A stretch of DNA of 64,000 nt, from the NCBI RefSeq assembly GCF_001677475.2, contig NZ_CP015229.1; one strand, 5' to 3'. A program made the position numbers and the translations under genes. Source of the DNA: Escherichia coli. GTDB taxonomy: Bacteria; Pseudomonadota; Gammaproteobacteria; Enterobacterales; Enterobacteriaceae. Positions 21,169 through 54,489 of this stretch are shown piece after piece; the first letter of the stretch is position 1; the number at the start of each line of letters is the position of its first letter. The notes beneath the pieces were generated by a model, which was not told where the DNA came from, ran no database searches, and worked only from the letters and a program-made list of their open reading frames with translations.

Positions 21169-21171
21169 ATA

Positions 21172-21208
21172 AAAAGCCGGGTGAAATTAAATCTTCCCGG
21201 CTTTTTTA
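21172..21208. terminator. intrinsic terminator closing cassette 1 (repeat-family hairpin)
   Basis: AAGCCGGG…CCCGGCTTTTTTATT; the same hairpin recurs after each immunity gene at about 25.8, 28.4 and 30.8 kb. Confidence 0.7.
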
Positions 21209-21212
21209 TTAT

Positions 21213-21542: not shown

Positions 21543-21781
21543 GATTAACTACTCCTGTTAGTTGCTTGTGGTGAGCGGCTGTTACAGGCGGCAACCTGTA
21601 GCAGTCGCGTTAAATATCAACGCATTACCTTCATTACCTGCTTCATCTTCTCCTGGGTGATCGCCATATCCAGAATACGGCAGATCACTTCCTGATCGTC
21701 TGCTTTAAGCTCATCAACCTGCTTACACAGTTCTTTTAACCGCTTGTTTTTTATATCGAAAACATCGCGGAAGAAGAAGGT

Positions 21782-31136: not shown

Positions 31137-31329
31137 GGTACAGTGGCGCTGTGTTTTGGAAATGATATTTTTGTATTTAACCTGCTGATTAGATAGTAAA
31201 ATAAACTTCGTGCAGATAGCTTACTTTATCAGGGTGTGGCGGTAGCGTATGAACTATGATGCGGTGGTTTCAGGAATGTACGTACAAAATCGATAGTACG
31301 ATCCTCCAATCAGGTAGATTTGCTGCCCT

Positions 31330-31734
31330 GATCCGATAGGGCTAAGAGGCGGGCTGAACCTGTATGCTTATGCGCCTAATCCGCTGAAATATATTGATCC
31401 ACTCGGATTAAAAAAAGAGCTCTGTAATGGAACTACTCGTGTGCGGCATTATACTAATCGTAAAGGTTCAAATGCGATTGCTGAAAGTGGGATAATTAAG
31501 GCGCATGATAACGGTCGTGTATATTTGGAACCTGCGAATAAAAAACCACTCAGTCAAGTAGACATAGAGGCGAAATATCAAATAGGTCGTGGGAAAGGTA
31601 GAGATTATGTGGATACAGATGTATCTAACGAGCAATTAGAGTGGGTAACAAACCCTCGATATCATATAGATGAATTGACTGTGAAAGGTGATATTATTCT
31701 TTCTGAAAATGCAAAAATAACTCGGCGTAAATAA
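31330..31734 (+). CDS. orphan Rhs C-terminal toxin cassette D (starts at the DPIGL core tail; no ATG, in-frame GTG at 31441)
   Basis: In-frame DPIGLRGGLNLYAYAPNPLKYIDPLGLKKELCNGTTRVRHYTNRKGSNAIAESGIIKAHDNGRVYLEP…; frame opens after a stop at about 31315. Confidence 0.65.
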   Translation, partial: DPIGLRGGLNLYAYAPNPLKYIDPLGLKKELCNGTTRVRHYTNRKGSNAIAESGIIKAHDNGRVYLEPANKKPLSQVDIEAKYQIGRGKGRDYVDTDVSNEQLEWVTNPRYHIDELTVKGDIILSENAKITRRK

Positions 31735-31735
31735 T

Positions 31736-32062
31736 ATGAATAAAAACAATGATGTAATTAATATACCCGGAAAGGATGCCCTTTATATTCTAAGTGAGGT
31801 AGAGTACATATTGATATCACTTAAGAATATTGCAAGGTATTATTTCAATGGTATAGAACAGAACGTTATTGATGATAAATTGTTGAATTCTTACTTTAAA
31901 GAAACCACTAAATTTATTGATGATAAAAATATTACACATCGATTGGCTGAAATAAGAAGGGTTATTACTGAAAATTTTAATACTGATCTTGGAGATGATG
32001 ATATGGATGATATTGAGAGAGAAATAGAAAAGATAAAATGTTGGGAGAAGCCGGGTGATTAA
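31736..32062 (+). CDS. putative immunity protein for orphan toxin D (108 aa)
   Basis: AT-rich ORF starting 2 bp after the toxin stop; acidic C-terminus. Confidence 0.65.
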   Translation: MNKNNDVINIPGKDALYILSEVEYILISLKNIARYYFNGIEQNVIDDKLLNSYFKETTKFIDDKNITHRLAEIRRVITENFNTDLGDDDMDDIEREIEKIKCWEKPGD

Positions 32063-32067
32063 TATAA

Positions 32068-32096
32068 AACGGGAAGGCATGTAGCCTTCCCGTTGA
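32068..32096. terminator. possible terminator hairpin after cassette D (weak T-run)
   Basis: CGGGAAGGCatgtaGCCTTCCCG followed by ttgag. Confidence 0.35.
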
Positions 32097-32127
32097 GCCT
32101 GTCAATCATTCTGTGTAAATGCCTTTC

Positions 32128-32583
32128 TCAGAAGTGACCGTCAAGGCAGTCCCCGAACTCGATAATAAAGCGACTCATGGCTATCCGCCAGTCCTGAAGT
32201 GGCATCGTCCATTTCTGTGAGGCTGACTGGATAGCCAGCCACACCACTTTTTTCACCGAGTCGTCTGTCGGGAACACTTTCCGTTTCTTTATCGCATGTC
32301 TGATGACGCTATTCAGCGATTCGATTGCGTTAGTGGTGTAGATAACCTTGCGGATCGCCTCCGGGTACACGAAGAAGGTGGCAACATTCGGCCAGTTTGC
32401 CCGCCAGCTGCGACTTATCTGCGGGTACCGTGCATCCCATTCCTTCCCGAACGCATCCAGCGCCTGCAACGTGCCTTCTTCCGTGGCTGCGCGGTAAACC
32501 TGTTTCAGGTCACGGGTTACCGCTTTATAGTCTTTCCACGCCACGAACCGCAGGCTGTTGCGTACCATGTGTACTATGCACAA
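32128..32583 (-). pseudogene. IS256-family (mutator-type) transposase, C-terminal fragment
   Basis: 151-aa ORF …VYPEAIRKVIYTTNAIESLNSVIRHAIKKRKVFPTDDSVKKVVWLAIQSASQKWTMPLQDWRIAMSRFIIEFGDCL; far shorter than an intact transposase; abuts H-repeat copy 2. Confidence 0.7.
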
Positions 32584-32597
32584 CTGGATCTGCGTCT

Positions 32598-33576
32598 CAG
32601 GGAAAGATCACGTAACGCTACTTTTTTGTACTAAATAATTGGCATTTTATGTTTAAAAATTGAGATATTCCTCATTACCTAAAGCTGTTTTTTTATTGCT
32701 TATACATGATCAAGTACTCCTTACATAATTAAGGAGAACAAAATGGAACTTAAAAAATTGATGGAACATATTTCTATTATTCCCGATTACAGACAAGCCT
32801 GGAAAGTGGAGCATAAATTGTCAGATATTCTACTGTTGACTATTTGTGCCGTTATTTCTGGTGCAGAAGGTTGGGAAGGTATAGAGGATTTTGGGGAAAC
32901 ACATCTCGATTTTTTGAAGCAATATGGTGATTTTGAAAATGGTATTCCTGTTCACGATACTATTGCCAGAGTTGTATCCTGTATCAGTCCTGCAAAATTT
33001 CATGAGTGCTTTATTAACTGGATGCAAGATTGCCATACTTCAGATGATAAAGACGTCATCGCAATTGATGGAAAAACACTTCGGCATTCTTATGACAAGC
33101 GTCGCCGCAAGGGAGCGATTCATGTCATTAGTGCGTTCTCAACAATGCACAGTCTGGTCATCGGACAGCTCAAGACGGATGAGAAATCTAATGAGATTAC
33201 AGCTATCCCTGAACTTCTTAACATGTTGGATATTAAAGGAAAAATTATCACAACTGATGCGATGGGTTGCCAGAAAGATATCGCAGAGAAGATACAAAAA
33301 CAGGGCGGTGATTATTTATTCGCTGTAAAAGGAAATCAGGGGCGGCTTAATAAAGCCTTTGAGGAAAAATTTCCACTGAAAGAATTAAATAATCCAGAGC
33401 ATGACAGTTACGCAATGAGTGAAAAGAGTCACGGCAGAGAAGAAATCCGTCTTCATATTGTTTGCGATGTCCCTGATGAACTTATTGATTTTACGTTTGA
33501 ATCGAAAGGGCAGCTATGGACAGAAACTACCTGACGTCAGTCCTTGCGGGGAGCGGGCTTTCGTAATCTTGCCCTG
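32598..33576 (+). mobile_element. H-repeat (ISAs1-family) element, copy 2, internally deleted (about 0.3 kb missing), no target duplication
   Basis: Same termini as copy 1 (CAGGGAAAGATCACG…CGTAATCTTGCCCTG); transposase ORF jumps from …FTFE to the element's final about 15 codons; flanks differ. Confidence 0.7.
32743..33534 (+). pseudogene. ybfD: H-repeat-associated transposase, truncated (263 aa; YbfD-like)
   Basis: N-terminal 250 aa about 95% identical to the copy at 26521; C-terminus replaced by [10 protein letters not shown] through the internal deletion; sits next to ybgA as ybfD does in K-12. Confidence 0.6.
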
Positions 33577-33651
33577 CTACAACAGGATTAACTTCACAAA
33601 CATCATTTACCAACGTCTACACTTACTCCTGTTAATATCTCAGGAGCAGTA

Positions 33652-34161
33652 ATGAATCAGCAACGATTTGATGACAGCACCCTAATCCGTATCTTCGCCC
33701 TTCATGAGTTACATCGACTGAAAGAACATGGCTTAACGCGCGGGGCGCTTCTCGATTATCACAGCCGCTATAAACTCGTCTTTCTGGCTCATTCCCAGCC
33801 GGAATACCGCAAACTTGGCCCGTTTGTGGCTGATATTCATCGGTGGCAAAGTCTGGATGACTATTACAACCAGTACCGCCAACGCGTAATTGTTTTGCTT
33901 TCTCACCCCGCCAACACGCGCGATCACACTAACGTTTTGATGCACGTTCAGGGATATTTTCGCCCACATATTGATTCCACAGAACGCCAGCAGCTGGCGG
34001 CGCTTATCGACAGTTATCGCGGTGGCGAGCAACCGCTTCTTGCGCCGCTGATGCGTATCAAACACTATATGGCGCTTTATCCTGACGCCTGGCTTTCAGG
34101 GCAGCGTTATTTCGAACTTTGGCCGCGTGTGATTAACTTGCGCCATTCAGGAGTTTTATGA
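33652..34161 (+). CDS. ybgA: YbgA (DUF1722 protein, 169 aa)
   Basis: ORF MNQQRFDDSTLIRIFALHELHRLKEHGLTRGALLDYHSRYKLVFLAHSQPEYRKLG…; overlaps phr start. Confidence 0.9.
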   Translation: MNQQRFDDSTLIRIFALHELHRLKEHGLTRGALLDYHSRYKLVFLAHSQPEYRKLGPFVADIHRWQSLDDYYNQYRQRVIVLLSHPANTRDHTNVLMHVQGYFRPHIDSTERQQLAALIDSYRGGEQPLLAPLMRIKHYMALYPDAWLSGQRYFELWPRVINLRHSGVL

Positions 34162-35576
34162 CTACCCATCTGGTCTGGTTTCGCCAGGATTTACGTCAGC
34201 ACGATAATCTCGCGCTGGCTGCCGCCTGCCGCAATTCGTCTGCGCGCGTGCTGGCGTTGTATATCGCTACCCCACGCCAGTGGGCGGCGCATAATGTGTC
34301 GCCGCGTCAGGCTGAACTTATCAATACACAACTTAATGCGCTGCAAAACGCGCTGGCGGAAAAAGGTATTCCTTTATTGTTCCGTGAAGTGGATGACTTT
34401 GTCGCCAGCGTCGAAATAGTTAAACAGGTGTGCGCGGAAAACCGCGTTACTCATCTTTTTTATAACTATCAGTATGAGGTGAATGAGCGGGCGCGGGATG
34501 TGGAAGTTGAAAGAGCGCTGCGTAACGTGGTGTGTGAAGGATTTGATGACAGCGTGATCCTGCCGCCGGGGGCGGTGATGACTGGCAATCATGAGATGTA
34601 CAAAGTCTTTACGCCATTTAAAAACGCCTGGCTGAAACGGCTGCGGGAAGGGATGCCGGAGTGCGTCGCTGCGCCAAAAGTACGTAGTAGTGGATCGATA
34701 GATCCCGCGCCATCCATTACGCTGAATTACCCTCGTCAGTCTTTCGATACTGCGCATTTCCCGGTGGAAGAAAAAGCGGCGATTGCGCAATTACGCCAGT
34801 TTTGCCAGAACGGTGCCGGAGAGTACGAGCAACAGCGAGATTTCCCTGCGGTAGAAGGCACCAGCCGTTTGTCCGCCAGCCTGGCAACGGGCGGGTTATC
34901 GCCTCGCCAGTGTCTGCATCGCCTGTTGGCGGAACAGCCGCAGGCGCTGGACGGTGGGGCCGGTAGTATCTGGCTTAATGAGCTGATCTGGCGCGAGTTT
35001 TACCGTCATCTGATAACGTATTACCCCTCGCTGTGTAAACATCGTCCGTTTATTGTCTGGACCGACCGCGTGCAGTGGCAGAGCAATTCCACGCATTTAA
35101 AGGCCTGGCAGGAAGGCAAAACGGGATACCCGATTGTTGATGCTGCCATGCGTCAGCTTAACAGCACTGGCTGGATGCATAACCGGCTACGGATGATTAC
35201 AGCCAGTTTTTTGGTGAAAGATTTATTGATCGACTGGCGCGAAGGTGAGCGATATTTCATGTCGCAGCTGATTGATGGTGATTTGGCAGCCAATAACGGT
35301 GGCTGGCAGTGGGCCGCTTCAACCGGAACCGATGCAGCGCCGTATTTTCGTATTTTTAATCCGACAACCCAGGGCGAGAAATTTGACTGCGAAGGCGAGT
35401 TTATCCGCCGGTGGCTACCAGAGTTGCGCGATGTACCAGGGAAAGCGGTGCATGAGCCGTGGAATTGGGCAGATAAATCAGGTGTGACGCTGGATTATCC
35501 GCAACCGATAGTCGATCACAAAGAAGCGAGAGTACGAACGTTGGCAGCGTATGAGGCGGCGAGGAAGGGGAAATAA
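34158..35576 (+). CDS. phr: deoxyribodipyrimidine photolyase (472 aa)
   Basis: ORF MTTHLVWFRQDLRQHDNLALAAACRNSSARVLALYIATPRQW…; photolyase/cryptochrome FAD-binding region WREFYRHL. Confidence 0.93.
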   Translation: MTTHLVWFRQDLRQHDNLALAAACRNSSARVLALYIATPRQWAAHNVSPRQAELINTQLNALQNALAEKGIPLLFREVDDFVASVEIVKQVCAENRVTHLFYNYQYEVNERARDVEVERALRNVVCEGFDDSVILPPGAVMTGNHEMYKVFTPFKNAWLKRLREGMPECVAAPKVRSSGSIDPAPSITLNYPRQSFDTAHFPVEEKAAIAQLRQFCQNGAGEYEQQRDFPAVEGTSRLSASLATGGLSPRQCLHRLLAEQPQALDGGAGSIWLNELIWREFYRHLITYYPSLCKHRPFIVWTDRVQWQSNSTHLKAWQEGKTGYPIVDAAMRQLNSTGWMHNRLRMITASFLVKDLLIDWREGERYFMSQLIDGDLAANNGGWQWAASTGTDAAPYFRIFNPTTQGEKFDCEGEFIRRWLPELRDVPGKAVHEPWNWADKSGVTLDYPQPIVDHKEARVRTLAAYEAARKGK

Positions 35577-35671
35577 CAGACGCGTCAGGCAATCTTGCCC
35601 GGATGCCGGATACTGCGTGATGAACTGCACCCCAAATGTTGGACATAATCTGACATCTGAAGGTGCAGTTT

Positions 35672-36189
35672 ATGAAACATTCATTTGAAGTAAAACTTGC
35701 CGCTGTAAATCATTACCTGGCTGGTCATGCAGGCATCATTTCTACGGCAAAACTCTTTCAACTTTCTCACACCAGCCTCTCACACTGGATTAATCTTTTT
35801 CTTCTTCACGGTCCTCGGGCACTGGATTGCAGACACAAGCGTAGCTATTCTCCTGAAGATAAACTTTGCGTGGTTCTTTATGCTCTCGGGCATTCTGAGT
35901 CTCTACCCCGGGTAGCTGCCCGGTTTAACATTCCCAGCCACAACACGGTTAAAAACTGGATAAAAGGCTACCGCAAATCTGGTAATGAGGCCTTTATCAG
36001 GCGCAGGAAGGAGAAAAGCATGACCCGTTCTGATGATACCCATGAAAACGAGGCAAACATGACGCCGGAAGAGATGAAGAATGAGCTGCGTTATCTTCGC
36101 GCAGAAAATGCATATCTGAAAGCCATGCAGGAGCATCTCCTGGAAAAAAAGCGCCAGGAGCTGGAGAAAAAACGAAAGTCATCCGGAGC

Positions 36190-36193
<4 letters not shown>
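35672..36193 (+). CDS. insJ: IS150 OrfA (InsJ, 173 aa)
   Basis: MKHSFEVKLAAVNHYLAGHAGIISTAKLFQLSHTSLSHWINLFLLHG…; helix-turn-helix plus leucine zipper typical of IS3 OrfA. Confidence 0.85.
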
Positions 36194-37052
<859 letters not shown>

Positions 37053-37158
37053 GAACGCCTTCTCCGGCTTGGCAAATAGTGCAAATTCAATATATTGCAG
37101 GGACATCCAGGCCTGATAAGACGCATTAAGCGTCGCATCAGGCATCGGTGCTGGCCTG

Positions 37159-38823
<1,665 letters not shown>

Positions 38824-38910
38824 TTAATATGTCAAAAGATTGGCTATCGACGAACAGGCGAGGTAACGCTATGTTAACGGAGTAGCTATCAGAATACGGA
38901 AGGCGCGAAG

Positions 38911-39654
38911 ATGAAAAACACCGAACTGGAACAACTGATTAACGAAAAACTGAACAGCGCGGCGATTAGTGATTACGCGCCGAATGGTTTGCAGGTGGAA
39001 GGCAAAGAGACGGTGCAAAAAATTGTTACCGGTGTCACTGCCAGCCAGGCTTTGCTCGATGAGGCAGTGCGTCTGGGCGCGGATGCGGTCATTGTGCATC
39101 ATGGCTACTTCTGGAAAGGCGAATCTCCGGTCATTCGCGGCATGAAGCGTAACCGTTTAAAAACGTTGCTGGCGAATGATATCAACCTGTATGGCTGGCA
39201 TTTGCCGCTTGACGCACATCCTGAACTGGGCAATAACGCACAGCTGGCGGCGTTACTGGGGATCACGGTCATGGGCGAAATTGAGCCGTTGGTGCCGTGG
39301 GGCGAACTGACTATGCCTGTGCCGGGACTGGAGCTGGCTTCCTGGATTGAAGCGCGTCTGGGACGTAAGCCGTTATGGTGTGGCGATACCGGACCTGAGG
39401 TGGTCCAGCGCGTCGCCTGGTGCACGGGCGGCGGGCAAAGTTTTATCGATAGCGCCGCGCGTTTTGGCGTGGATGCTTTTATTACTGGCGAAGTTTCTGA
39501 ACAGACCATTCATTCAGCCCGCGAGCAGGGATTGCATTTTTATGCTGCGGGTCACCATGCCACTGAACGCGGTGGTATTCGCGCATTGAGCGAGTGGCTG
39601 AATGAAAATACCGATCTTGATGTGACCTTTATTGATATTCCTAATCCTGCATAA
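38911..39654 (+). CDS. ybgI: YbgI, Nif3-family metal-binding protein (247 aa)
   Basis: ORF MKNTELEQLINEKLNSAAISDYAPNGLQVEGKETVQKIVTGVTASQALLDEAV…. Confidence 0.93.
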   Translation: MKNTELEQLINEKLNSAAISDYAPNGLQVEGKETVQKIVTGVTASQALLDEAVRLGADAVIVHHGYFWKGESPVIRGMKRNRLKTLLANDINLYGWHLPLDAHPELGNNAQLAALLGITVMGEIEPLVPWGELTMPVPGLELASWIEARLGRKPLWCGDTGPEVVQRVAWCTGGGQSFIDSAARFGVDAFITGEVSEQTIHSAREQGLHFYAAGHHATERGGIRALSEWLNENTDLDVTFIDIPNPA

Positions 39655-39676
39655 CGAATAATCAGAGGGATCGAAA

Positions 39677-40333
39677 GTGCAACGAGCGCGTTGTTATCTG
39701 ATAGGTGAAACGGCGGTAGTACTGGAACTGGAACCGCCGGTGACGCTGGCTAGCCAGAAACGGATCTGGCGACTGGCACAGCGTCTGGTGGATATGCCGA
39801 ATGTGGTTGAAGCCATTCCTGGCATGAACAATATCACAGTGATTTTGCGTAATCCTGAGTCGCTGGCGCTGGATGCCATAGAGCGTTTGCAACGCTGGTG
39901 GGAGGAGAGTGAGGCGCTGGAGCCGGAGTCTCGCTTTATTGAAATTCCGGTGGTTTACGGTGGCGCAGCCGGACCGGATTTGGCGGTGGTCGCGGCGCAT
40001 TGTGGATTGAGCGAAAAACAGGTTGTTGAATTGCACTCCTCCGTGGAATACGTGGTCTGGTTTTTAGGTTTTCAACCGGGCTTCCCGTATCTCGGGAGTT
40101 TGCCGGAACAACTACACACGCCACGGCGCGCTGAACCGCGCTTGCTCGTTCCGGCAGGTTCTGTCGGGATCGGCGGGCCGCAGACCGGTGTTTATCCGCT
40201 GGCAACGCCGGGTGGCTGGCAGTTGATTGGTCATACATCACTCAGCCTGTTTGATCCGGCGCGTGACGAACCCATCTTATTACGTCCGGGAGACAGCGTG
40301 CGCTTTGTACCCCAGAAGGAGGGAGTATGCTGA
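39677..40333 (+). CDS. pxpB: 5-oxoprolinase subunit B (PxpB/YbgJ, 218 aa)
   Basis: [58 protein letters not shown]…. Confidence 0.9.
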
Positions 40334-41252
40334 AGATTATTCGTGCGGGCATGTATACCACTGTGCAGGATGGCGGTCGTCACGGTTTTCGCCAGTCGGG
40401 TATCAGCCACTGCGGCGCACTGGATATGCCCGCGTTACGCATTGCTAACCTACTGGTGGGTAATGACGCCAATGCCCCCGCGCTGGAGATCACGCTCGGT
40501 CAGTTAACGGTTGAGTTCGAAACTGATGGGTGGTTTGCTCTGACGGGGGCCGGTTGCGAAGCGCGGCTGGATGATAACGCCGTCTGGACCGGCTGGCGCT
40601 TGCCGATGAAAGCAGGTCAGCGTTTAACGCTTAAACGCCCGCAGCACGGGATGCGCAGTTATCTGGCGGTCGCGGGTGGTATTGATGTTCCGCCGGTAAT
40701 GGGGTCATGCAGTACCGATCTCAAAGTGGGGATTGGTGGGCTGGAAGGCCGTTTACTGAAGGATGGTGACCGACTCCCGATGGGTAAATCGAAGCGTGAT
40801 TTTATGGAAGCGCAGGGCGTTTGCTGTGGGGCAACCGCATTCGCGCCTTGCCGGGGCCGGAATATCATGAGTTCGATCGCGCCTCGCAGGATGCATTCTG
40901 GCGTTCGCCCTGGCAGCTTAGTCCGCAAAGTAACCGCATGGGCTATCGCTTACAGGGGCAAATTTTAAAACGCACCACCGATCGCGAACTGTTATCTCAC
41001 GGTTTGTTACCGGGCGTGGTGCAGGTGCCACATAACGGGCAGCCGATTGTGTTGATGAACGACGCACAGACCACCGGTGGTTATCCGCGTATTGCCTGTA
41101 TCATCGAGGCTGATATGTACCATCTGGCGCAAATTCCGCTCGGTCAGCCGATTCATTTTGTCCAGTGTTCACTGGAAGAAGCACTGAAAGCACGGCAAGA
41201 TCAGCAACGTTATTTCGAACAATTAGCGTGGCGGCTGCACAATGAAAATTGA
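40327..41252 (+). pseudogene. pxpC: 5-oxoprolinase subunit C (PxpC/YbgK) with an apparent frameshift near 40820
   Basis: ORF 40327..40968 covers the N-terminal about 165 aa ([47 protein letters not shown]…EAQGV), then the protein continues in another frame (ORF 40821..41252: LWGNRIRALPGPEYHEFDRASQDAFWRSPWQL…); the two parts sum to the expected about 310 aa. Confidence 0.75.
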
Positions 41253-41976
41253 CCTGAACGCCGATCTGGGCGAAGGCTATGCCAGCGACGCAGAGCTATT
41301 AACGCTGGTTTCCTCTGCCAATATTGCCTGTGGATTTCATGCAGGCGATGCGCAAACCATGCAGGCTTGCGTGCGTGAAGCAATAAAAAATGGTGTTGCG
41401 ATTGGCGCTCACCCGAGTTTTCCCGACAGGGAAAATTTTGGGCGCAGCGTCATGCAGCTGCCGCCAGAAACCGTTTACGCCCAGACGCTGTATCAAATTG
41501 GCGCGCTGGCAACGATTGCCCGTGCGCAAGGCGGTGTTATGCGTCATGTCAAACCTCACGGCATGTTATACAACCAGGCAGCGAAAGAGGCACAACTGGC
41601 AGACGCCATCGCCAGAGCGGTATACGCTTGCGATCCGGCATTGATTCTCGTCGGGCTGGCGGGAAGCGAGCTGATTCGTGCAGGCAAGCAATATGGCCTG
41701 ACAACGCGCGAGGAAGTGTTTGCCGATCGCGGTTACCAGGCTGACGGCTCGCTGGTGCCGCGAAGCCAGCCAGGCGCGTTGATTGAAGACGAAGAACAGG
41801 CGCTTGCGCAAACGTTGGAGATGGTGCAACACGGCAGAGTCAAAAGTATCACCGGCGAATGGGCAACGGTCACGGCGCAAACGGTCTGCCTGCATGGCGA
41901 CGGCGAGCACGCACTGGCATTCGCCCGCCGACTACGCTCTACATTTGCCGAAAAGGGGATTGTTGTCGCAGCATAA
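41242..41976 (+). CDS. pxpA: 5-oxoprolinase subunit A (PxpA/YbgL, LamB/YcsF family, 244 aa)
   Basis: [71 protein letters not shown]…. Confidence 0.92.
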
Positions 41977-42011
41977 CCCCGTTTAATAAAGAATGAAAAA
42001 AGGATATCACC

Positions 42012-42803
42012 ATGCCTGAAGGCCCGGAGATCCGCCGTGCAGCGGATAACCTGGAGGCGGCGATCAAAGGCAAACCACTAACTGATGTCTGGTTTGCCTT
42101 CCCGCAGTTAAAATCTTATCAATCACAACTTATCGGTCAACACGTTACCCATGTGGAAACGCGTGGTAAGGCGTTGTTAACTCATTTTTCCAACGAATTA
42201 ACGCTCTACAGCCATAATCAGCTTTACGGCGTCTGGCGCGTGGTTGATACCGGCGAAGAGCCGCAGACTACGCGAGTATTGCGGGTAAAACTGCAAACGG
42301 TTGACAAAACTATTCTGCTTTATAGCGCCTCGGATATTGAGATGTTGACGCCGGAACAACTGATCACGCATCCGTTTTTACAACGAGTCGGCCCCGATGT
42401 GCTGGATCCGAATCTGACGCCGGAGGTGGTAAAGGAACGGTTATTGTCGCCGCGCTTTCGTAACCGTCAGTTTGCTGGATTACTGCTCGATCAGGCGTTT
42501 CTGGCTGGGCTTGGCAATTATTTGCGGGTGGAGATCCTCTGGCAGGTTGGGTTGACTGGAAATCATAAAGCGAAAGATCTCAATGCGGCGCAACTGGATG
42601 CACTCGCACACGCGTTACTGGATATTCCTCGATTTTCCTACGCTACGCGGGGGCAGGTGGATGAGAATAAGCATCATGGGGCGCTGTTTCGCTTTAAGGT
42701 TTTTCATCGTGATGGCGAACTGTGCGAACGCTGTGGCGGCATCATTGAGAAAACCACGCTGTCATCTCGCCCGTTTTACTGGTGCCCTGGCTGTCAGCAC
42801 TAG
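42012..42803 (+). CDS. nei: endonuclease VIII (263 aa)
   Basis: [37 protein letters not shown]…; N-terminal PEGPE catalytic motif and C-terminal zinc finger CERCGG…CPGCQ. Confidence 0.93.
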
Positions 42804-43846
42804 GCCGTACGTTTCGGCGCATAGGTTGAAATAAACCGCGCAATGGCTGGTCCCGTCAGCAAAATACTGAACAGGCGCAGGGTTTGCATCGCCATAATGA
42901 GCGCCATATCGGCATTGCTCCCTGCGGCGATGACCGCCACGGTATCAAGCCCGCCGGGGCTGGTGGCGAGGTAGGCAGTCATAAAATCAATGTGCATAAA
43001 TCGGGTCAGTCCCCACGCCATACCCGCACAAATAGCCAGCAGAGCAAAAATCGACAGCAGGATTTGTGGCAGTGGGCGCAATGCCCGCAGTAATATTTGT
43101 TTATCGAAACCAAGACCAATCCGCCAACCAATTGCCATATACGCCATCGCCAGCAGCCATTCTGGTAGTTCGATGGTGATGAGCTGACCAGACTGGAGCA
43201 CTGCGCCCGCCAGCATCGGGATGAGCATCGTGCCGGAAGGAAGACGTAGCAAGCATCCCGCCGTACCGGCAACGACCGCGAGCAAAATCGTAAGCAGGAG
43301 ATTAATGCTCACTGGCGGAAACCAGACGATCTGCTGGTTAACCGCTTCAGCGTTATCGCCCAGCATCATGCGGGTGACCAGAACAGCGGCCCCCGCGACG
43401 AACAGCACTCGCAGATATTGCATAAACGCCACCAGGCGAATATCTGCGCCGTAATCTTGCGCCATAGCGACCATTGCCGCCGCGCCGCCAGGAGAGGAAC
43501 CCCAGGCACCGGTATTTCCAGGCAATGAGCTATAGCGCACCAATAACCAACCCACAATGGCGCTGGAAAGCAGCGTTACCAGTAAAATTGCAAGCACGAT
43601 CGGCCAGTTGACGGCCAGGGTGGTGAGAATCGAACCAGTGAGGTTTTGCGCAATCATGCAGCCAAGAATGGCCTGGGCGGCGAGAAAAGCGGAGCGGGGA
43701 AGTTGCAGAGTAATTCCGCGCATACTAAAGATGATCCCGGCGATCATCGGCCCAAGTAATAGCGCCGCCGGGAGATGTACCGCGAGGAAACCAATAGAAA
43801 GGAGAAGTGATAGCACACATAACATTCCCCACTGCAAAACTGGCAT
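42800..43846 (-). CDS. abrB: AbrB (AidB regulator; putative membrane transporter, 348 aa)
   Basis: ORF 42800..43924 contains [44 protein letters not shown]…; start chosen at MPVLQW. Confidence 0.85.
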
Positions 43847-44076
43847 CCTTCGCTCCCTCATTATTTTCTCTTTGGTGTATCGATACAGCATAAAGAAAGC
43901 TGGGCCAGGAAAAAATAACAGCAATCAAGGAAAAGGGGAAAATCAGCAATTTTCTGAAAGAGATGCCCTTTCCGGCGGCAAAGGGCATCATGGTAAATCA
44001 GTTATAGTTAATCTTAAAAAGCACCACTGTATCGAAGGGGCCAGCCTCGATGGGGGTGCCTGCAATGGACGAAAGT

Positions 44077-45060
44077 TCAGCAGTATAGGTTTTTTTCGTA
44101 GATCAGCATATCGCTGGTGAAATCGGCGTATTCAGCATATTTATTGAATGTATAAGGCGAGGCGTTTTCATCTAGTAAACGTAGCTTCAGACCATTACCA
44201 ATCAACAATGCTTTATCCTCTTCAATCAATGTTTCTTCGGTATAAAACGAAGAGCTGACCTTAAATCCGTCGGTGCACTGGTCATTTTGTGATTTTGTCG
44301 TCTTAATACTGAATGTTTTCGACATTGTGTGGCGGCGAATATCCAGCAGATTAAATTTACCAAAATCAATCACCTGTGTTTCTGGTGAAATAGAAAAATT
44401 GACGCTGCAATCCAGTACACGAATGTTTTCCAGACCAGTAATATGGTATTTCAGGTTTTGGGCGGTAGGGTCTTCGTTAACGCTACCGGCACCATCAAAT
44501 TGCACGACGATGTAGTCGCTAAGCGTACTTTGATAATCATGCGGCGGCATTTCGCGAATCTTAACGTATAACCGCATACGAGCGAGAAAGGTTCGCGACA
44601 TGTGAATATTAGCGGGGTCACCCGAGCATATTTTGTTCTGCCAGCCCATCGCGATAAGCTGCTCAGGGGTATAAATGTTAATGTTCTTACTGTCGATACA
44701 CTGGTTGGTGTCGATGCGGCTTTTCCCCAGACTGGCATCGTAATCGACACCATTGTATGTCACGCCGAGTTGATAATAACGATCCTGTACCCCTGGGTAG
44801 GGGTTTACCCATGCGTAGACATGTTCGCTTTCAAAGTTGCCGTTGGTATTGTTGTCGCAATAGACGGGAATTTTAATATCGTCAGATTCCCAGATCTTAT
44901 CGCCGAGTTTGGCATTACCTGGCACAGCAAAGGGTTGAATCGCTTCCGATTTTTCTACCGTTCCGCCGGAAGTACCAAAATAGCAGTTCAGCGCTAGCGC
45001 AGACTTCAATGGTAGAAATAACAGACAGATGACGAGCAACAATCCTTTGCCAGTACTCAT
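44077..45060 (-). CDS. ybgO: YbgO, fimbrial adhesin-like protein
   Basis: ORF 44077..45102; start chosen at [23 protein letters not shown] (signal peptide) preceded by GGAGG; last gene of the ybgDQPO chaperone-usher operon. Confidence 0.8.
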
Positions 45061-45788
45061 TTCTTCGCCTCCACTGCTTGTAAACGGCAATGTCCGTTGC
45101 AATTGAGCGTCGTCATGCGTAACGCGCCGTAATCATCCATATAACCGAGATAAAACTGACTGCCGCTATAACTTCCGGTGTTTGTAATTACTGTACTAAA
45201 AGGCGCAACCATCACGGTTTTGAAGCCCGGGAGAACAGCTTGCTCATTTCGTCCCAGGTAGGCGATTGTCAGGTAATAGCCGGTCGGGTTTTTTAAGTTA
45301 AGTTGATTGCCCTGCTGGCTGACTTGTAACTGTAGCTCGACTTTTTCTCCTGCTTTCTTGCGTAACGCGGACGGTCTCCAGAACACCTTGATACGACTCT
45401 GGATGGCGACCTGCAGAACGGCATGACTGCTGTTTTTTTCTGGGGAGGGAGGAATTTCACGCATATTGTAGAAAAATAGCGTTTCGCGATCGCCAGGTAA
45501 TTTCGCGGTCGAGGCTTGCTTGACTATCCGCACCTGCGTTGTTGCTTTCGGTTCCAGACGTTGTATCGGTGGCAGGGCGACCAGAAGATCGTCGCTTTTC
45601 TCCCCTTTTTCATTTTCGAGCCAGGAATAAGCGAGGTAGGGGAGTTTATCGCTACGATTATCCACTCGCAGGCTGGTGGCTTTATCATTAGCGTTAAACA
45701 CAATGCGAGTGCGATCGGGTTGTAGCGCAGCGTAGCTGCACAGACTGGCAATCAACAACAAAAGGGGAAGTCCTTTCATAAATGTCAT
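45057..45788 (-). CDS. ybgP: YbgP, periplasmic fimbrial chaperone (PapD-like, 243 aa)
   Basis: [59 protein letters not shown]…. Confidence 0.88.
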
Positions 45789-45803
45789 TTTTCATTTCCT
45801 TAA

Positions 45804-48263
45804 TTAATGACAAGGTAAAATCAGGCGATTTGCGGTGTCTTCCATATGTTCAGGAAGATGGATCGAGCAACGCTGGCTATCACCCCAGACCACGGTAAAT
45901 TGTTGATTTTCAGCGACTCCACTTAACCAGGCGTGTCCTTCCTCGCCAACCATCCCCACGCTAATGCCGCTATCATTCTGACGGATATCCGCACCGAGGG
46001 GAGGGAACTGACCGCTGGCGTTGCGAATGATGACGTTAACGTTATTACCGGAACGGGAAGCCAGCGATTTGTAACCTATCGCGCCTTCAATCCACGTTTC
46101 TTTGATAACGTTTTCTGCCACTGTTACGCCGTCGGGTAAGTCATTCATGTTCACCGCCACGGTGGAAGGCTGATAACTGGAAATCAACGGCACCACCGCA
46201 ATGCCAAAATGGTTGGTGTAGTCGAGATTGCCCTGAACCGGAATATCTGCCACGCCATCGGTACTGACCATCAGACGTGGTTCATTGGTGGAGCTGCGAC
46301 GATGGAACGCCGCACCATATTGAGTTGCCGTGAAAGAACCGCTCCAGCTGCTGCTGACGGAACTGTAATCATTGGCGGCATAGGTACCAGAAATATCCCA
46401 CTCACCCGCTGAACTCAGGTGCTGATAGTTACCGCTCACCTGGGCGCCATTGTCAGGACGGTCGGATTGCAGCCCGGCAGACATGCCCCAGCTATTACGT
46501 TCATCCAGCGTATCGTTCCACGACATGCGGTGCGTGGTGCTGTTACTACTGTTTTGCATGTCATAGCCGACTCGACCACCGTTACCGACAGGTAATGAAA
46601 TCGACAGGTAAATCTGGTTGTCGCGATCTTTGTCTTCGTAGTGGGTTGTGTTGAATGACGTCGAGATCGATATATCTTTCCAGTCACCGATATCAATATT
46701 AAAACCTGCCGTTATGTTGGCGGTCGTGGAGGTATTTGCGTTCCACCAGGTCTGATGTAACAGGTTGGCGTACAGGTTGAGGTTCAGAGGGGTTATCGGT
46801 TGGCCTACTGATAAGCTGATCGTCTGTTTTTCGTCTTGTGCATCGTTGTCGTTGTATTTGTGATCCAGATAGTTGGCGTAGCTGTGAAAATGACGATCGG
46901 AGAAGCGATAAGCAGCGAGTGAAATCGTACTATTTGTGGCGTCCACTTGTTTGCTGTAATTGAAACGGTAGCTTAAGCCCCGCTCGTCCTGCTGGGTATC
47001 AAATTGGCTACTGGCCCAGGTGACATCAAACGACAATGCACCAAGCCAGAGTATATTTTGCCCGATACCCATTGCGGCAGAATGGTAGTCGTCACCCGAA
47101 ATCAGCAGGCCGCCGTACAGCGAGGTATTTGACAGCATCCCCCAGGAAACTTCATTGCTAAAAAAGGTTTCATTTTCAGTTTGATGAGACATAGATGTTC
47201 GCGGCTGACCGGCAGCAAGTTTATAGCGAACCTGCCCCTGACGCGTAAGGAAAGGCGTCGATGCTGCCGAAACCTGGAAATTCTTCACCCGACCATCTTC
47301 TTCCGTCACTTTGACATCCAGCGTACCCTGGACGGACTGATTAAGGTCATCAATAATAAACGGGCCTGGCGGGACTTTTTTCTGATAAATAACTCGCCCC
47401 GAATGACTTACGGTGACAGTGGCGTTGGTTTGCGCGATACCGCTGATTTGTGGGGCGTAGCCGCGTAGCTCCCACGGTAACATCCGATCGTCACTTGCCA
47501 GTGCCGCGCCGGTATAAGAAAAGCCGTCGAAAATATTGGAACTGAAATCCGTTTCACCAAGGGTTAATTTTGAACCTAATTGCGGTAATGGACGAAAAAG
47601 ATAGGTGCGTGATATTTCGCCTGACTGTTCATGGTTATCATCGCTATCGGTCTGATTCAATTGGTAATCACTGCGTAAACGCCATGCTCCCGCGTTAATT
47701 CCGGCTGTTCCATAGGCGTTCAGGTTAGTGCTGTTGCTACCATCCTGTGGGCGGTAGCTGCTTGCAAACAGGTTGTAGTCCATCAGGACGCCGGCGACAC
47801 CCTCTTTCCATGTTGAGGGGGGAGTCCAGTTATCTGAGTGCCACGCCAGCCAGGCTTGTGGAATAGTGATATTCAGTTGCTGGCTAGCCTGATCAAAAAT
47901 GAAGAGAATTTCAGGCCGGGAGCTAAAATCGACGCACTGGTTTAACCGTGGTAACGACTGACGAACTTCAGGTTTTAAACCAAATTTATCTACCAGTAAA
48001 TCATTAATACACGGAATGGTTTGGTCACCGTTCTTTTTCCAGTCAATTTTTTGTCCGTTACTGATTTGGTTGTTATTTACTGCAACGCTAACAAAATATT
48101 CACCGGGAACAATGCCCCCTTTTTCCTTTAATAATGAAATATCAATGCGATCTCGCATCGATTTATCGAGGACATTCAGGTTGAATTCGACCGCCAATGC
48201 GGAAGGCATCGCCATGACCAGGCAGGATATAAAAGAGAGTCGATAAATATTCACGGTGTCCAT
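45804..48263 (-). CDS. ybgQ: YbgQ, outer-membrane fimbrial usher
   Basis: ORF 45804..48305 (833 aa); likely start at MDTVNIYRLSFISCLVMAMPSALA; usher family by size and operon position. Confidence 0.85.
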   Translation of the reverse strand: MDTVNIYRLSFISCLVMAMPSALAVEFNLNVLDKSMRDRIDISLLKEKGGIVPGEYFVSVAVNNNQISNGQKIDWKKNGDQTIPCINDLLVDKFGLKPEVRQSLPRLNQCVDFSSRPEILFIFDQASQQLNITIPQAWLAWHSDNWTPPSTWKEGVAGVLMDYNLFASSYRPQDGSNSTNLNAYGTAGINAGAWRLRSDYQLNQTDSDDNHEQSGEISRTYLFRPLPQLGSKLTLGETDFSSNIFDGFSYTGAALASDDRMLPWELRGYAPQISGIAQTNATVTVSHSGRVIYQKKVPPGPFIIDDLNQSVQGTLDVKVTEEDGRVKNFQVSAASTPFLTRQGQVRYKLAAGQPRTSMSHQTENETFFSNEVSWGMLSNTSLYGGLLISGDDYHSAAMGIGQNILWLGALSFDVTWASSQFDTQQDERGLSYRFNYSKQVDATNSTISLAAYRFSDRHFHSYANYLDHKYNDNDAQDEKQTISLSVGQPITPLNLNLYANLLHQTWWNANTSTTANITAGFNIDIGDWKDISISTSFNTTHYEDKDRDNQIYLSISLPVGNGGRVGYDMQNSSNSTTHRMSWNDTLDERNSWGMSAGLQSDRPDNGAQVSGNYQHLSSAGEWDISGTYAANDYSSVSSSWSGSFTATQYGAAFHRRSSTNEPRLMVSTDGVADIPVQGNLDYTNHFGIAVVPLISSYQPSTVAVNMNDLPDGVTVAENVIKETWIEGAIGYKSLASRSGNNVNVIIRNASGQFPPLGADIRQNDSGISVGMVGEEGHAWLSGVAENQQFTVVWGDSQRCSIHLPEHMEDTANRLILPCH

Positions 48264-48313
48264 ACCTGATAAATATTTGAAGAAAGGCGACGATGACGCC
48301 GCCAAAGTGATAC

Positions 48314-48880
48314 TTATTTATAATCCAGTACGTAGGTCGCATTCGCCGTAACTGCGCCTGGTGTTACGGGCGTAGCCTGATCAATTTGTTCCATCCACGC
48401 AAAGAAATTTAACGTTTGTTCGCTGGAGGTTGGTGCCAGGTCGATATCTGGAGTAGCGTTGCCTAAAACGATATTGGTTTGATCTTTATTCATTAAACGC
48501 ACGCCGACACCAGTCGCTTCACCCGTGCTGGTGTTGTTGAGAATCGGATCTGCGCCGGTGGTTTTCGCTGAGCTGTCAAAGGTGACTGCAACTTTAGAAA
48601 TCTTGCCGCCGGAACCGTTGTTAGAGTTTTCCAGATCGCAGTTGACTAAGCGCAGGTCGACAGCAACGGCATCGCTGTGATGCGACTGATTAATGTGGCT
48701 GGTGGTCACCTGACCGAGTTCAACCTCTTTATCAATATCATCCTGATGTATTTCACACGGTGCTTCAATAACTTCACCTTTAAAGTGAATTTCACCGGAT
48801 CCTTCATCAGCCGCATAAACAGGTGCAGTGAACAGCAGAGATACGGCCAGTGCGGCCAATGTTTTTTGTCCTTTAAACAT
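48314..48880 (-). CDS. ybgD: YbgD, fimbrial major subunit-like protein (188 aa)
   Basis: ORF 48314..48967; start chosen at MFKGQKTLAALAVSLLFTAPVYA (signal peptide) with AAGGA RBS. Confidence 0.85.
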   Translation of the reverse strand: MFKGQKTLAALAVSLLFTAPVYAADEGSGEIHFKGEVIEAPCEIHQDDIDKEVELGQVTTSHINQSHHSDAVAVDLRLVNCDLENSNNGSGGKISKVAVTFDSSAKTTGADPILNNTSTGEATGVGVRLMNKDQTNIVLGNATPDIDLAPTSSEQTLNFFAWMEQIDQATPVTPGAVTANATYVLDYK

Positions 48881-49268
48881 AGCTGAGTCCTTTAAATAAT
48901 GAGATAGAGTGTTGCGAGGCAAGAATATATTAACTGACAGTTGAATGTATTTGGTTTTATTTAACAATATTAAAAAGCTTGTTATATAAAGAATGGAATA
49001 ATTGAGTGCATAAATTTATTGTTTAATGAGATGAAGGATGGGGGGGATGGATATGCATAATTTTCATTGGGTTAACAATGCTACCGGCAGGAAAGTATAA
49101 AAATAAACTTATCATTCTGCTCAGTATGTGACTTGTCATATTTTTTCACCTTATTAATGGGTATTTGCATCTGGTTTAATTTTTACAATTTATTATGTTC
49201 AGCCATATAAAAAAGAACCCGCTCTATTAAAGGCGGGTCCGGAAAGTAAACGGCTTAGCAATCAACCA

Positions 49269-50552
49269 TTAACGCTTGATATCGCTTTTAAAGTCGCGTT
49301 TTTCATATCCTGTATACAGCTGACGCGGACGGGCAATCTTCATACCGTCACTGTGCATTTCGCTCCAGTGGGCGATCCAGCCAACGGTACGTGCCATTGC
49401 GAAAATGACGGTGAACATGGAAGACGGAATACCCATCGCTTTCAGGATGATACCAGAGTAGAAATCGACGTTCGGGTACAGTTTCTTCTCGATAAAGTAC
49501 GGGTCGTTCAGCGCGATGTTTTCCAGCTCCATAGCCACTTCCAGCAGGTCATCCTTCGTGCCCAGCTCTTTCAGCACTTCATGGCAGGTTTCACGCATTA
49601 CGGTGGCGCGCGGGTCGTAATTTTTGTATACGCGGTGACCGAAGCCCATCAGGCGGAAAGAATCATTTTTATCTTTCGCACGACGAACAAATTCCGGAAT
49701 GTGTTTAACGGAGCTGATTTCTTCCAGCATTTTCAGCGCCGCTTCGTTAGCACCACCGTGCGCAGGTCCCCACAGTGAAGCAATACCTGCTGCGATACAG
49801 GCAAACGGGTTCGCACCCGAAGAGCCAGCGGTACGCACGGTGGAGGTGGAGGCGTTCTGTTCATGGTCAGCGTGCAGGATCAGAATACGGTCCATAGCAC
49901 GTTCCAGAATCGGATTAACTTCATACGGTTCACACGGCGTGGAGAACATCATATTCAGGAAGTTACCGGCATAGGAGAGATCGTTGCGCGGGTAAACAAA
50001 TGGCTGACCAATGGAATACTTGTAACACATCGCGGCCATTGTCGGCATTTTCGACAGCAGGCGGAACGCGGCAATTTCACGATGACGAGGATTGTTAACA
50101 TCCAGCGAGTCGTGATAGAACGCCGCCAGCGCGCCGGTAATACCACACATGACTGCCATTGGATGCGAGTCACGACGGAAAGCATGGAACAGACGGGTAA
50201 TCTGCTCGTGGATCATGGTATGACGGGTCACCGTAGTTTTAAATTCGTCATACTGTTCCTGCGTCGGTTTTTCACCATTCAGCAGGATGTAACAAACTTC
50301 CAGGTAGTTAGAATCGGTCGCCAGCTGATCGATCGGGAAACCGCGGTGCAGCAAAATACCTTCATCACCATCAATAAAAGTAATTTTAGATTCGCAGGAT
50401 GCGGTTGAAGTGAAGCCTGGGTCAAAGGTGAACACACCTTTTGAACCGAGAGTACGGATATCAATAACATCTTGACCCAGCGTGCCTTTCAGCACATCCA
50501 GTTCAACAGCTGTGTCCCCGTTGAGGGTGAGTTTTGCTTTTGTATCAGCCAT
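49269..50552 (-). CDS. gltA: citrate synthase (427 aa)
   Basis: [81 protein letters not shown]…. Confidence 0.96.
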
Positions 50553-51260
50553 TTAAGGTCTCCTTAGCGCCTTATTGCGTAAGACTGCCGGAACTTAAAT
50601 TTGCCTTCGCACATCAACCTGGCTTTACCCGTTTTTTATTTGGCTCGCCGCTCTGTGAAAGAGGGGAAAACCTGGGTACAGAGCTCTGGGCGCTTGCAGG
50701 TAAAGGATCCATTGATGACGAATAAATGGCGAATCAAGTACTTAGCAATCCGAATTATTAAACTTGTCTACCACTAATAACTGTCCCGAATGAATTGGTC
50801 AATACTTCCACACTGTTACATAAGTTAATCTTAGGTGAAATACCGACTTCATAACTTTTACGCATTATATGCTTTTCCTAGTAATGTTTGTAACAACTTT
50901 GTTGAATGATTGTCAAATTAGATGATTAAAAATTAAATAAATGTTGTTATCGTGACCTGGATCACTGTTCAGGATAAAACCAGACAAACTATATGTAGGT
51001 TAATTGTAATGATTTTGTGAACAGCCTATACTGCCGCCAGGTCTCCGGAACACCCTGCAATCCCGAGCCACCCAGCGTTGTAACGTGTCGTTTTCGCATC
51101 TGGAAGCAGTGTTTTGCATGACGCGCAGTTATAGAAAGGACGCTGTCTGACCCGCAAGCAGACCGGAGGAAGGAAATCCCGACGTCTCCAGGTAACAGAA
51201 AGTTAACCTCTGTGCCCGTAGTCCCCAGGGAATAATAAGAACAGCATGTGGGCGTTATTC
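50553..51260. promoter_or_regulatory. gltA / sdhCDAB-sucABCD divergent promoter region
   Basis: About 700-bp AT-rich intergenic region between divergent gltA and sdhC; function assigned from knowledge of the locus, sites not individually resolved. Confidence 0.5.
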
Positions 51261-51650
51261 ATGATAAGAAATGTGAAAAAACAAAGACCTGTTAATCTGG
51301 ACCTACAGACCATCCGGTTCCCCGTCACGGCGATAGCGTCCATTCTCCATCGCGTTTCCGGTGTGATCACCTTTGTTGCAGTGGGCATCCTGCTGTGGCT
51401 TCTGGGTACCAGCCTCTCTTCCCCTGAAGGTTTCGAGCAAGCTTCCGCGATTATGGGCAGCTTCTTCGTCAAATTTATCATGTGGGGCATCCTTACCGCT
51501 CTGGCGTATCACGTCGTCGTAGGTATTCGCCACATGATGATGGATTTTGGCTATCTGGAAGAAACATTCGAAGCGGGTAAACGCTCCGCCAAAATCTCCT
51601 TTGTTATTACTGTCGTGCTTTCACTTCTCGCAGGAGTCCTCGTATGGTAA
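51261..51650 (+). CDS. sdhC: succinate dehydrogenase cytochrome b556 subunit SdhC (129 aa)
   Basis: ORF 51246..51650 contains [38 protein letters not shown]…; start chosen at MIRNVKK. Confidence 0.93.
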
Positions 51651-51991
51651 GCAACGCCTCCGCATTAGGACGCAATGGCGTACATGATTTCATCCTCGTT
51701 CGCGCTACCGCTATCGTCCTGACGCTCTACATCATTTATATGGTCGGTTTTTTCGCTACCAGTGGCGAGCTGACATATGAAGTCTGGATCGGTTTCTTCG
51801 CCTCTGCGTTCACCAAAGTGTTCACCCTGCTGGCGCTGTTTTCTATCTTGATCCATGCCTGGATCGGCATGTGGCAGGTGTTGACCGACTACGTTAAACC
51901 GCTGGCTTTGCGCCTGATGCTGCAACTGGTGATTGTCGTTGCACTGGTGGTTTACGTGATTTATGGATTCGTTGTGGTGTGGGGTGTGTGA
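51644..51991 (+). CDS. sdhD: succinate dehydrogenase membrane anchor SdhD (115 aa)
   Basis: [55 protein letters not shown]…. Confidence 0.95.
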
Positions 51992-53757
51992 TGAAATTGC
52001 CAGTCAGAGAATTTGATGCAGTTGTGATTGGTGCCGGCGGCGCAGGTATGCGCGCGGCGCTGCAAATTTCCCAGAGCGGCCAGACCTGTGCGCTGCTCTC
52101 TAAAGTCTTCCCGACCCGTTCCCATACCGTTTCTGCGCAAGGCGGCATTACCGTTGCGCTGGGTAATACCCATGAAGATAACTGGGAATGGCATATGTAC
52201 GACACCGTAAAAGGGTCGGACTATATCGGTGACCAGGACGCGATTGAATATATGTGTAAAACCGGGCCGGAAGCGATTCTGGAACTGGAGCACATGGGCC
52301 TGCCATTCTCGCGTCTTGATGATGGTCGTATCTATCAACGTCCGTTTGGCGGTCAGTCGAAAAACTTCGGCGGCGAGCAGGCGGCACGTACTGCGGCGGC
52401 TGCTGACCGTACCGGTCACGCACTGTTGCACACCCTTTATCAGCAGAACCTGAAAAACCACACCACCATTTTCTCCGAGTGGTATGCGCTGGATCTGGTG
52501 AAAAACCAGGATGGCGCGGTGGTCGGTTGTACCGCACTGTGCATCGAAACTGGTGAAGTGGTTTACTTCAAAGCTCGCGCTACCGTGCTGGCGACTGGCG
52601 GGGCAGGGCGTATTTATCAGTCCACTACCAACGCCCACATTAACACTGGCGACGGCGTCGGCATGGCTATCCGTGCAGGCGTACCAGTGCAGGATATGGA
52701 AATGTGGCAGTTCCACCCGACTGGTATTGCCGGTGCGGGCGTACTGGTCACCGAAGGGTGCCGTGGTGAAGGCGGTTATCTGCTGAACAAACATGGCGAA
52801 CGCTTTATGGAGCGTTATGCGCCGAACGCCAAAGACCTGGCGGGCCGTGACGTGGTGGCGCGTTCCATCATGATTGAAATCCGTGAAGGTCGCGGCTGTG
52901 ATGGTCCGTGGGGGCCACACGCAAAACTGAAACTTGACCACCTGGGTAAAGAAGTTCTCGAATCCCGTCTGCCGGGTATCCTGGAACTCTCCCGTACCTT
53001 CGCTCACGTCGATCCGGTGAAAGAGCCGATTCCGGTTATCCCAACCTGTCACTACATGATGGGCGGTATTCCGACCAAAGTGACCGGTCAGGCGCTGACT
53101 GTGAACGAGAAAGGCGAAGATGTGGTTGTTCCGGGGCTGTTTGCCGTTGGTGAAATCGCTTGTGTATCGGTACACGGCGCTAACCGTCTGGGCGGCAACT
53201 CGCTGCTGGACCTGGTGGTCTTTGGTCGCGCAGCGGGTCTGCATCTGCAAGAGTCTATCGCCGAGCAGGGCGCACTGCGCGATGCCAGCGAGTCTGATGT
53301 TGAAGCGTCTCTGGATCGTCTGAACCGCTGGAACAACAACCGTAACGGTGAAGATCCGGTGGCGATCCGTAAAGCGCTGCAAGAATGTATGCAGCATAAC
53401 TTCTCGGTCTTCCGTGAAGGTGATGCGATGGCGAAAGGGCTTGAGCAGTTGAAAGTGATCCGCGAGCGTCTGAAAAATGCCCGTCTGGATGACACTTCCA
53501 GCGAGTTCAACACCCAGCGCGTTGAGTGCCTGGAACTGGATAACCTGATGGAAACGGCGTATGCAACGGCTGTTTCTGCCAACTTCCGTACCGAAAGCCG
53601 TGGCGCGCATAGCCGCTTCGACTTCCCGGATCGTGATGATGAAAACTGGCTGTGCCACTCCCTGTATCTGCCTGAGTCGGAATCCATGACGCGCCGAAGC
53701 GTCAACATGGAACCGAAACTGCGCCCGGCATTCCCGCCGAAGATTCGTACTTACTAA
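51991..53757 (+). CDS. sdhA: succinate dehydrogenase flavoprotein SdhA (588 aa)
   Basis: ORF 51979..53757 contains [52 protein letters not shown]…; start at MKLPV overlapping the sdhD stop. Confidence 0.95.
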
Positions 53758-53772
53758 TGCGGAGACAGGAAA

Positions 53773-54489
53773 ATGAGACTCGAGTTTTCAATTTATCGCT
53801 ATAACCCGGATGTTGATGATGCTCCGCGTATGCAGGATTACACCCTGGAAGCGGAAGAAGGTCGTGACATGATGCTGCTGGATGCGCTTATCCAGCTGAA
53901 AGAGAAAGATCCCAGCCTGTCGTTCCGTCGCTCCTGCCGTGAAGGTGTGTGCGGTTCCGACGGTCTGAACATGAACGGCAAGAATGGTCTGGCCTGTATT
54001 ACCCCGATTTCGGCACTCAACCAGCCGGGCAAGAAGATTGTGATTCGCCCACTGCCAGGTTTACCGGTGATCCGTGATTTGGTGGTAGACATGGGACAAT
54101 TCTATGCGCAATATGAGAAAATTAAGCCTTACCTGTTGAATAATGGACAAAATCCGCCAGCTCGCGAGCATTTACAGATGCCAGAGCAGCGCGAAAAACT
54201 CGACGGGCTGTATGAATGTATTCTCTGCGCATGTTGTTCAACCTCTTGTCCGTCTTTCTGGTGGAATCCCGATAAGTTTATCGGCCCGGCAGGCTTGTTA
54301 GCGGCATATCGTTTCCTGATCGATAGCCGTGATACCGAGACTGACAGCCGCCTCGACGGTTTGAGCGATGCATTCAGTGTATTCCGCTGTCACAGCATCA
54401 TGAACTGCGTCAGTGTATGTCCGAAGGGGCTGAACCCGACGCGCGCCATCGGCCATATCAAGTCGATGTTGTTGCAACGTAATGCGTAA
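53773..54489 (+). CDS. sdhB: succinate dehydrogenase iron-sulfur subunit SdhB (238 aa)
   Basis: ORF MRLEFSIYRYNPDVDDAPRMQDYTLEAEEGRDMMLLDALIQLKEKDPSLSFRRSCREGVCGSDG…; Cys clusters for three Fe-S centres. Confidence 0.96.
   Translation: MRLEFSIYRYNPDVDDAPRMQDYTLEAEEGRDMMLLDALIQLKEKDPSLSFRRSCREGVCGSDGLNMNGKNGLACITPISALNQPGKKIVIRPLPGLPVIRDLVVDMGQFYAQYEKIKPYLLNNGQNPPAREHLQMPEQREKLDGLYECILCACCSTSCPSFWWNPDKFIGPAGLLAAYRFLIDSRDTETDSRLDGLSDAFSVFRCHSIMNCVSVCPKGLNPTRAIGHIKSMLLQRNA

Follow-up and report, generated by a model that had tools for sequence, protein, structure and literature searches.

A 7-bp deletion turns pxpC (ybgK) into a lineage-specific frameshift pseudogene in Escherichia coli

The window, that is, the whole stretch of E. 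coli DNA analysed here, is 64,000 nucleotides long. It contains a row of genes on the plus strand that begins with ybgI (38911..39654) and is closed by an intact nei, coding for endonuclease VIII (42012..42803). Between them lie pxpB (ybgJ, 39677..40333), pxpC (ybgK, 40327..41252) and pxpA (ybgL, 41242..41976), all in the same orientation. Both pxpB and pxpA are intact, and the exact PxpB protein is widespread. The order pxpB-pxpC-pxpA is retained together with its overlapping stop and start codons: the stop codon of pxpB overlaps the start of pxpC, and the start of pxpA overlaps the normal stop of pxpC by 11 nt. The locus is the same as that of E. coli K-12 pxpC (ybgK; PDB 5DUD), and dtpD, the ybgI-pxpB-pxpC-pxpA-nei row and abrB are found in the same synteny. 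However, while the K-12 gene is an ORF of 310 aa, the window copy lacks the bases AAACAGC and is left with a 213-aa product and an untranslated remnant.

The pxpC pseudogene measures 926 bp, as against 933 bp for the normal gene. Its zero frame (40327..40968, plus strand) encodes 165 native PxpC residues followed by 48 out-of-frame residues, and is terminated by a premature TAA at 40966-40968. The C-terminal remnant lies out of frame on the same strand (40818..41252) and comprises 144 aa, corresponding to PxpC residues 167-310; in a mechanical ORF listing this half appears as 143 aa starting from a TTG at 40821 (40821..41252). When intact PxpC was used as a tblastn query, residues 1-165 were placed at 40327..40821 and residues 167-310 at 40818..41249. 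The deletion junction is located between 40821 and 40822, and the AAACAGC that is gone comprises codons K166 and Q167 and the first base of L168. When the window copy is aligned to the intact E. coli pxpC of L001, this loss is the sole indel, a gap of 7 columns, and it is accompanied by 9 substitutions. By megablast, 40327..41252 shows 98.3% identity to the annotated pxpC of complete genomes, the 7 gap columns being counted; outside the gap, the closest copies from complete genomes agree with it at 917 of the 926 aligned bases.

The first-pass annotation had recognised a pxpC (ybgK) gene disrupted by a frameshift, with an N-terminal part of 165 aa and a C-terminal part of 143 aa in separate frames that meet near 40821, and had estimated that about 7 bp were missing. 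The identity of the gene and its disruption are borne out by the ORF listing, megablast, the alignment and tblastn; the coordinates and sizes were right, and the alignment with the intact gene fixes the loss at exactly 7 bp. The peptide given there for the intact protein, EAQGVKQLLWGNRIR, also agrees with intact PxpC.

In the alignment, no homopolymer, direct repeat or microhomology flanks the junction, whose context is GTT/TGC. A slipped-strand origin was considered and discarded, because neither microhomology nor a repeat is present there; the mutational mechanism is a simple small deletion. Putting the 7 bases back yields a 310-aa PxpC that matches exactly the common intact allele, which occurs on at least 1000 contigs and bears the name "5-oxoprolinase subunit PxpC". 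Therefore, the deletion is the only lesion, and pxpC is free of secondary decay. Instead of a single uninterrupted ORF of about 310 aa, the gene has a frameshift after codon 165 and an early stop which, judging from the sequence, make the window pxpC a pseudogene of the family and not a functional member.

The break falls within a single Pfam domain, PF02626 (CT_A_B), of which the N-terminal half of pxpC covers profile positions 2-139 and the C-terminal half positions 155-260 of 261. The E-values are 3.8e-51 for the N-terminal half, 6.1e-40 for the C-terminal half and 1.2e-94 for the repaired protein, which also matches the YbgK chain of PDB 5DUD with E = 5.7e-214. Homology to PxpC thus extends over the whole length, as seen with PF02626, with 5DUD and with the exact named allele. 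With a break midway through its only CT_A_B domain, PxpC, and with it the PxpABC 5-oxoprolinase, would most probably be inactive in the window lineage. A complex of YbgJ and YbgK (PxpB and PxpC) has been documented (PMC3790201). The summary of Niehaus et al. (2017) given in PMC13274462 states that pxpA, pxpB and pxpC are each required for the removal of 5-oxoproline in Bacillus subtilis; the same summary gives phosphorylation of 5-oxoproline as the assumed role of PxpB and PxpC, and opening of the ring as that of PxpA. The genetic requirement has been shown for PxpC in B. subtilis and for the pxpABC cluster in Corynebacterium glutamicum, both of them organisms other than E. coli. The loss of PxpC and of 5-oxoprolinase that had been predicted at the outset is well supported by the break inside the domain and is consistent with the B. 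subtilis genetics.

The two halves of pxpC could also be made separately, as the 213-aa product and as a second polypeptide restarted at the TTG at 40821 or at the ATG at 40938, and reassemble as an active split PxpC. Both halves keep significant Pfam matches, and in related contigs an ORF of 104 aa for the C-terminal part, starting from the ATG at 40938, is predicted by gene callers. However, the protein is cut inside one compact domain, the 48-residue out-of-frame tail would probably disturb folding, and no Shine-Dalgarno-like sequence precedes either the TTG at 40821 or the ATG at 40938. Moreover, a start at 40938 would drop residues 166-206, and no other lineage conserves the split. We regard an active split PxpC as very unlikely.

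The distribution of the deletion was studied among complete genomes, drafts and read assemblies. Megablast with 40327..41252 finds an annotated pxpC in 5,423 of 5,426 complete RefSeq E. coli genomes, and in each of the top-listed complete-genome records the 926-base query spans 933 bases. An 80-mer across the junction has no ungapped match in the 5,423 genomes, the best match being of 92% and the 7-bp gap being always present; as a direct difference in sequence from all of these genomes, the junction raises no question of chance. A junction 26-mer gave 0 matches in the species representatives of GTDB. The chromosome of the window itself is apparently not part of the complete RefSeq E. coli set. 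The exact 213-aa product (P0001) is found on other public contigs, 16 according to the contig index and 11 according to the cluster table. The deletion is present in L002, a Logan assembly of the SRR24434776 reads (99.985% identity with the window across 6,642 bp), and in two NCBI drafts, L008 (GCA_033745465.1; 100% identical over 5,735 bp) and L010 (GCA_018682865.1; 99.983% identical over 5,735 bp). Each draft represents other similar places as well, 16 in the case of L008 and 3 in that of L010, the sequence comparison covering L008 and L010 themselves. In L008, the interval between pxpB and pxpA has no recorded pxpC product, which is what one would expect had pxpC already been annotated there as a pseudogene.

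These data bear on the possibility that pxpC is in reality intact and that its gap was introduced in sequencing, as the first-pass annotation also allowed, or in assembly. The absence of the junction from all complete RefSeq E. coli genomes would fit such an error, as would the location of a further frameshift of the window, that of ybgO, in a T7 homopolymer. However, a clean loss of 7 bp away from homopolymers is not a typical platform error, and the same deletion recurs in independent drafts and in a read assembly that are almost identical to the window, its exact frameshift product being present on the 16 contigs mentioned above. The T7 run of ybgO is likewise common to L008 and L010. The deletion is confined neither to one assembly nor to an error-prone context, and the error explanation, which is in effect refuted by these observations, has hardly any probability left. 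A programmed -1 ribosomal frameshift giving near-full-length PxpC can be dismissed as practically negligible: although two frames are open throughout 40800..40968, so that a -1 shift anywhere there would produce a continuous protein of about 308 aa, no X_XXY_YYZ slippery heptamer occurs in the zero frame upstream of the stop, programmed frameshifts are conserved while this junction is absent from the 5,423 genomes, and the junction itself stems from a recent deletion, the gene being normally a single ORF.

Contigs that encode an identical PxpA (P0016) include two, L009 and L011, in which pxpC is an intact gene of 310 aa. Over the stretch of about 4 kb from ybgI to nei, L009 and the window are separated by only 4 SNPs and the 7-bp indel. 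The closeness of this intact relative points to a deletion that is recent on one E. coli haplotype and has been transmitted clonally. However, outside the operon L009, which is the closest relative with an intact pxpC, has a mosaic sequence, with a divergence of 0.7-0.9% over 5.7 kb that is found chiefly in abrB and ybgO, and precise dating of the deletion is therefore not possible.

The window lineage seems to be poorly represented among the complete RefSeq E. coli genomes. Over 30000..54000 of the window (24 kb), the best complete E. coli genome shows about 97% identity and covers about 90%; it is chiefly the variable rhs and ybg fimbrial regions that lower the identity. For the flanking core genes kdp, sdh and suc, the identity to the single reference locus that was aligned is 97.6-98.3%. 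A decaying, Shigella-like genome was suspected from the best match of about 97%, but this idea was dropped, as the window proteins correspond to the GenBank E. coli entries ANO87881-ANO87903 and the neighbouring genes are largely intact. In the comparison with the reference, 33 of 35 neighbouring orthologues in the window are undisrupted; therefore, the assembly is not riddled with frameshifts.

In the 17.4 kb aligned to the reference, just one further indel disrupts a gene, namely ybgO, which codes for a fimbrial protein on the minus strand (approximately 44001..45102). The indel is a 1-bp insertion that gives a run of T7, where L007, L009 and L011 have T6; the run ends at about 44090, and the 353-aa reference protein is split at about residue 322. 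Since L008 and L010 also carry T7, this insertion has been inherited together with the pxpC deletion.

A complex rhs region occupies 16055..33534 of the window. It contains a full-length rhs gene (16055..20737) for a protein of 1560 aa, the exact sequence of which has been seen on one contig only, and an orphan piece of an rhs C-terminus (28746..30518). On the minus strand there are several ORFs, or remnants of ORFs, for SymE-like toxins, at 21213..21542, at 28453..28695 and at approximately 25840-26064 and 30906-31130. Transposase genes are represented by an intact ISEc1/ISAs1 copy (26521..27657), a second, truncated one (32743..33534) and a fragment of the IS256 family (Transposase_mut, 32128..32583). 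At about 21800..25000, within the AT-rich part of the region, there is a GC-rich block (58-68% GC) in which a tyrosine recombinase is split by a frameshift, the PF00589 halves being located in the ORFs 22937..23941 and 23613..24095. A related element of 5.5 kb encodes a DNA primase, a XerC-like recombinase and an HTH protein. Among 5,426 complete E. coli genomes this element is found in just 62, mostly with about 91% identity, and its median copy number per genome is 4. The block in the window looks like a shortened and decayed copy of this rare multicopy mobile element.

Other pxpC frameshifts have been detected in public E. coli assemblies. Those of the P0002/P0004 type and of the P0003 type lie within about 40 bp of the window junction and share its out-of-frame tail and premature stop; however, they are independent 1-bp deletions on different haplotypes, whereas the window deletion removes 7 bp. 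In L003-L006, four contigs from four samples, 1 bp is deleted from a TGGGGC run a few bases downstream (positions approximately 2505-2510), and the P0003 allele has lost a T from the TT dinucleotide in GCCTTGCC, further downstream. The GGGG-run allele was searched for in the complete RefSeq E. coli genomes and is absent from them. In L003, nei is also split, into ORFs of 116 aa and 134 aa. The 104-aa orphan ORF of the C-terminal part of pxpC is called on 622 contigs. Inactivation of pxpC recurs at low frequency in E. coli. A mutational hotspot at codons 166-178 was considered and set aside: clustering of the proteins at 90% groups the products by their common tail, so that alleles brought together by the same out-of-frame tail do not demonstrate a hotspot, and their clustering is at least partly an artefact.

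The window allele resembles the lineage-specific frameshift pseudogenes of core metabolic genes known in E. coli and Shigella, in which a small indel that inactivates a conserved core gene is carried clonally and the operon is otherwise intact. Large-scale decay of the genome is not in evidence here: besides the rhs/IS region, ybgO is the sole other frameshifted gene among the 35. The observation is confirmed, and pxpC is here an ordinary lineage-specific frameshift pseudogene of a well-characterised gene at its normal locus.

The frameshift could also affect the genes downstream. The ribosome-binding site of pxpC is strong (AAGGAGGGAG), the Shine-Dalgarno sequence upstream of pxpA is weak and nei has a reasonable one of its own. 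Ribosomes translating the frameshifted pxpC would stop 274 nt ahead of the pxpA start. The overlap of this start with pxpC and the weak Shine-Dalgarno sequence make it possible that pxpA depends on coupling to pxpC, a dependence that the frameshift would remove, and translation of pxpA may be reduced through the lost coupling. An operon structure with nei as the last gene is part of the background for this row of genes. In the ybgI-nei interval, no promoter-like site was found on the plus strand, and the title of Gifford and Wallace (2000), cited in PMC6467930, fits an operon that ends in nei; both are compatible with the suggestion that ybgI to nei might form a single transcription unit ending in nei. 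Polarity exerted by the pxpC stop could possibly reduce the expression of nei.

Taken as a whole, it is very probable that a genuine 7-bp deletion of AAACAGC frameshifted pxpC in one E. coli lineage, was inherited vertically and abolished PxpC function. In the course of events that we propose, the loss of AAACAGC at codons 166-168 has shifted the reading frame and been passed on vertically within that single lineage; the deletion, its inheritance and the division of the domain are demonstrated by the sequences, and the loss of activity and the polarity are inferred. From a normal, strong ribosome-binding site, a 213-aa product would be made that joins the first half of CT_A_B to 48 unrelated residues. 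Neither the PxpB-PxpC complex nor the ATP-dependent PxpABC 5-oxoprolinase would then be functional, and 5-oxoproline, which forms spontaneously, would no longer be recycled to glutamate. The early stop of the ribosomes may lower the translation of pxpA, and less transcription might possibly reach nei. A more speculative proposal is that the loss of 5-oxoprolinase was selected and not neutral in the window lineage and, separately, that lower levels of Nei subtly alter the repair of oxidised pyrimidines. The other pxpC frameshifts and the 104-aa orphan ORF on 622 contigs could hint at a recurrent, possibly adaptive inactivation, although we consider this proposal unlikely.

For the organism, loss of function through the genuine deletion would mean that the window lineage is predicted to be devoid of the only known E. 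coli 5-oxoprolinase. As a predicted consequence, 5-oxoproline may accumulate or be excreted and may not serve as a nitrogen source. The pxpC gene should carry a pseudogene label here, the importance of the finding beyond annotation being slight. Because the 7-bp deletion is absent from all complete RefSeq E. coli genomes, it can be used as a convenient clonal marker for the lineage.
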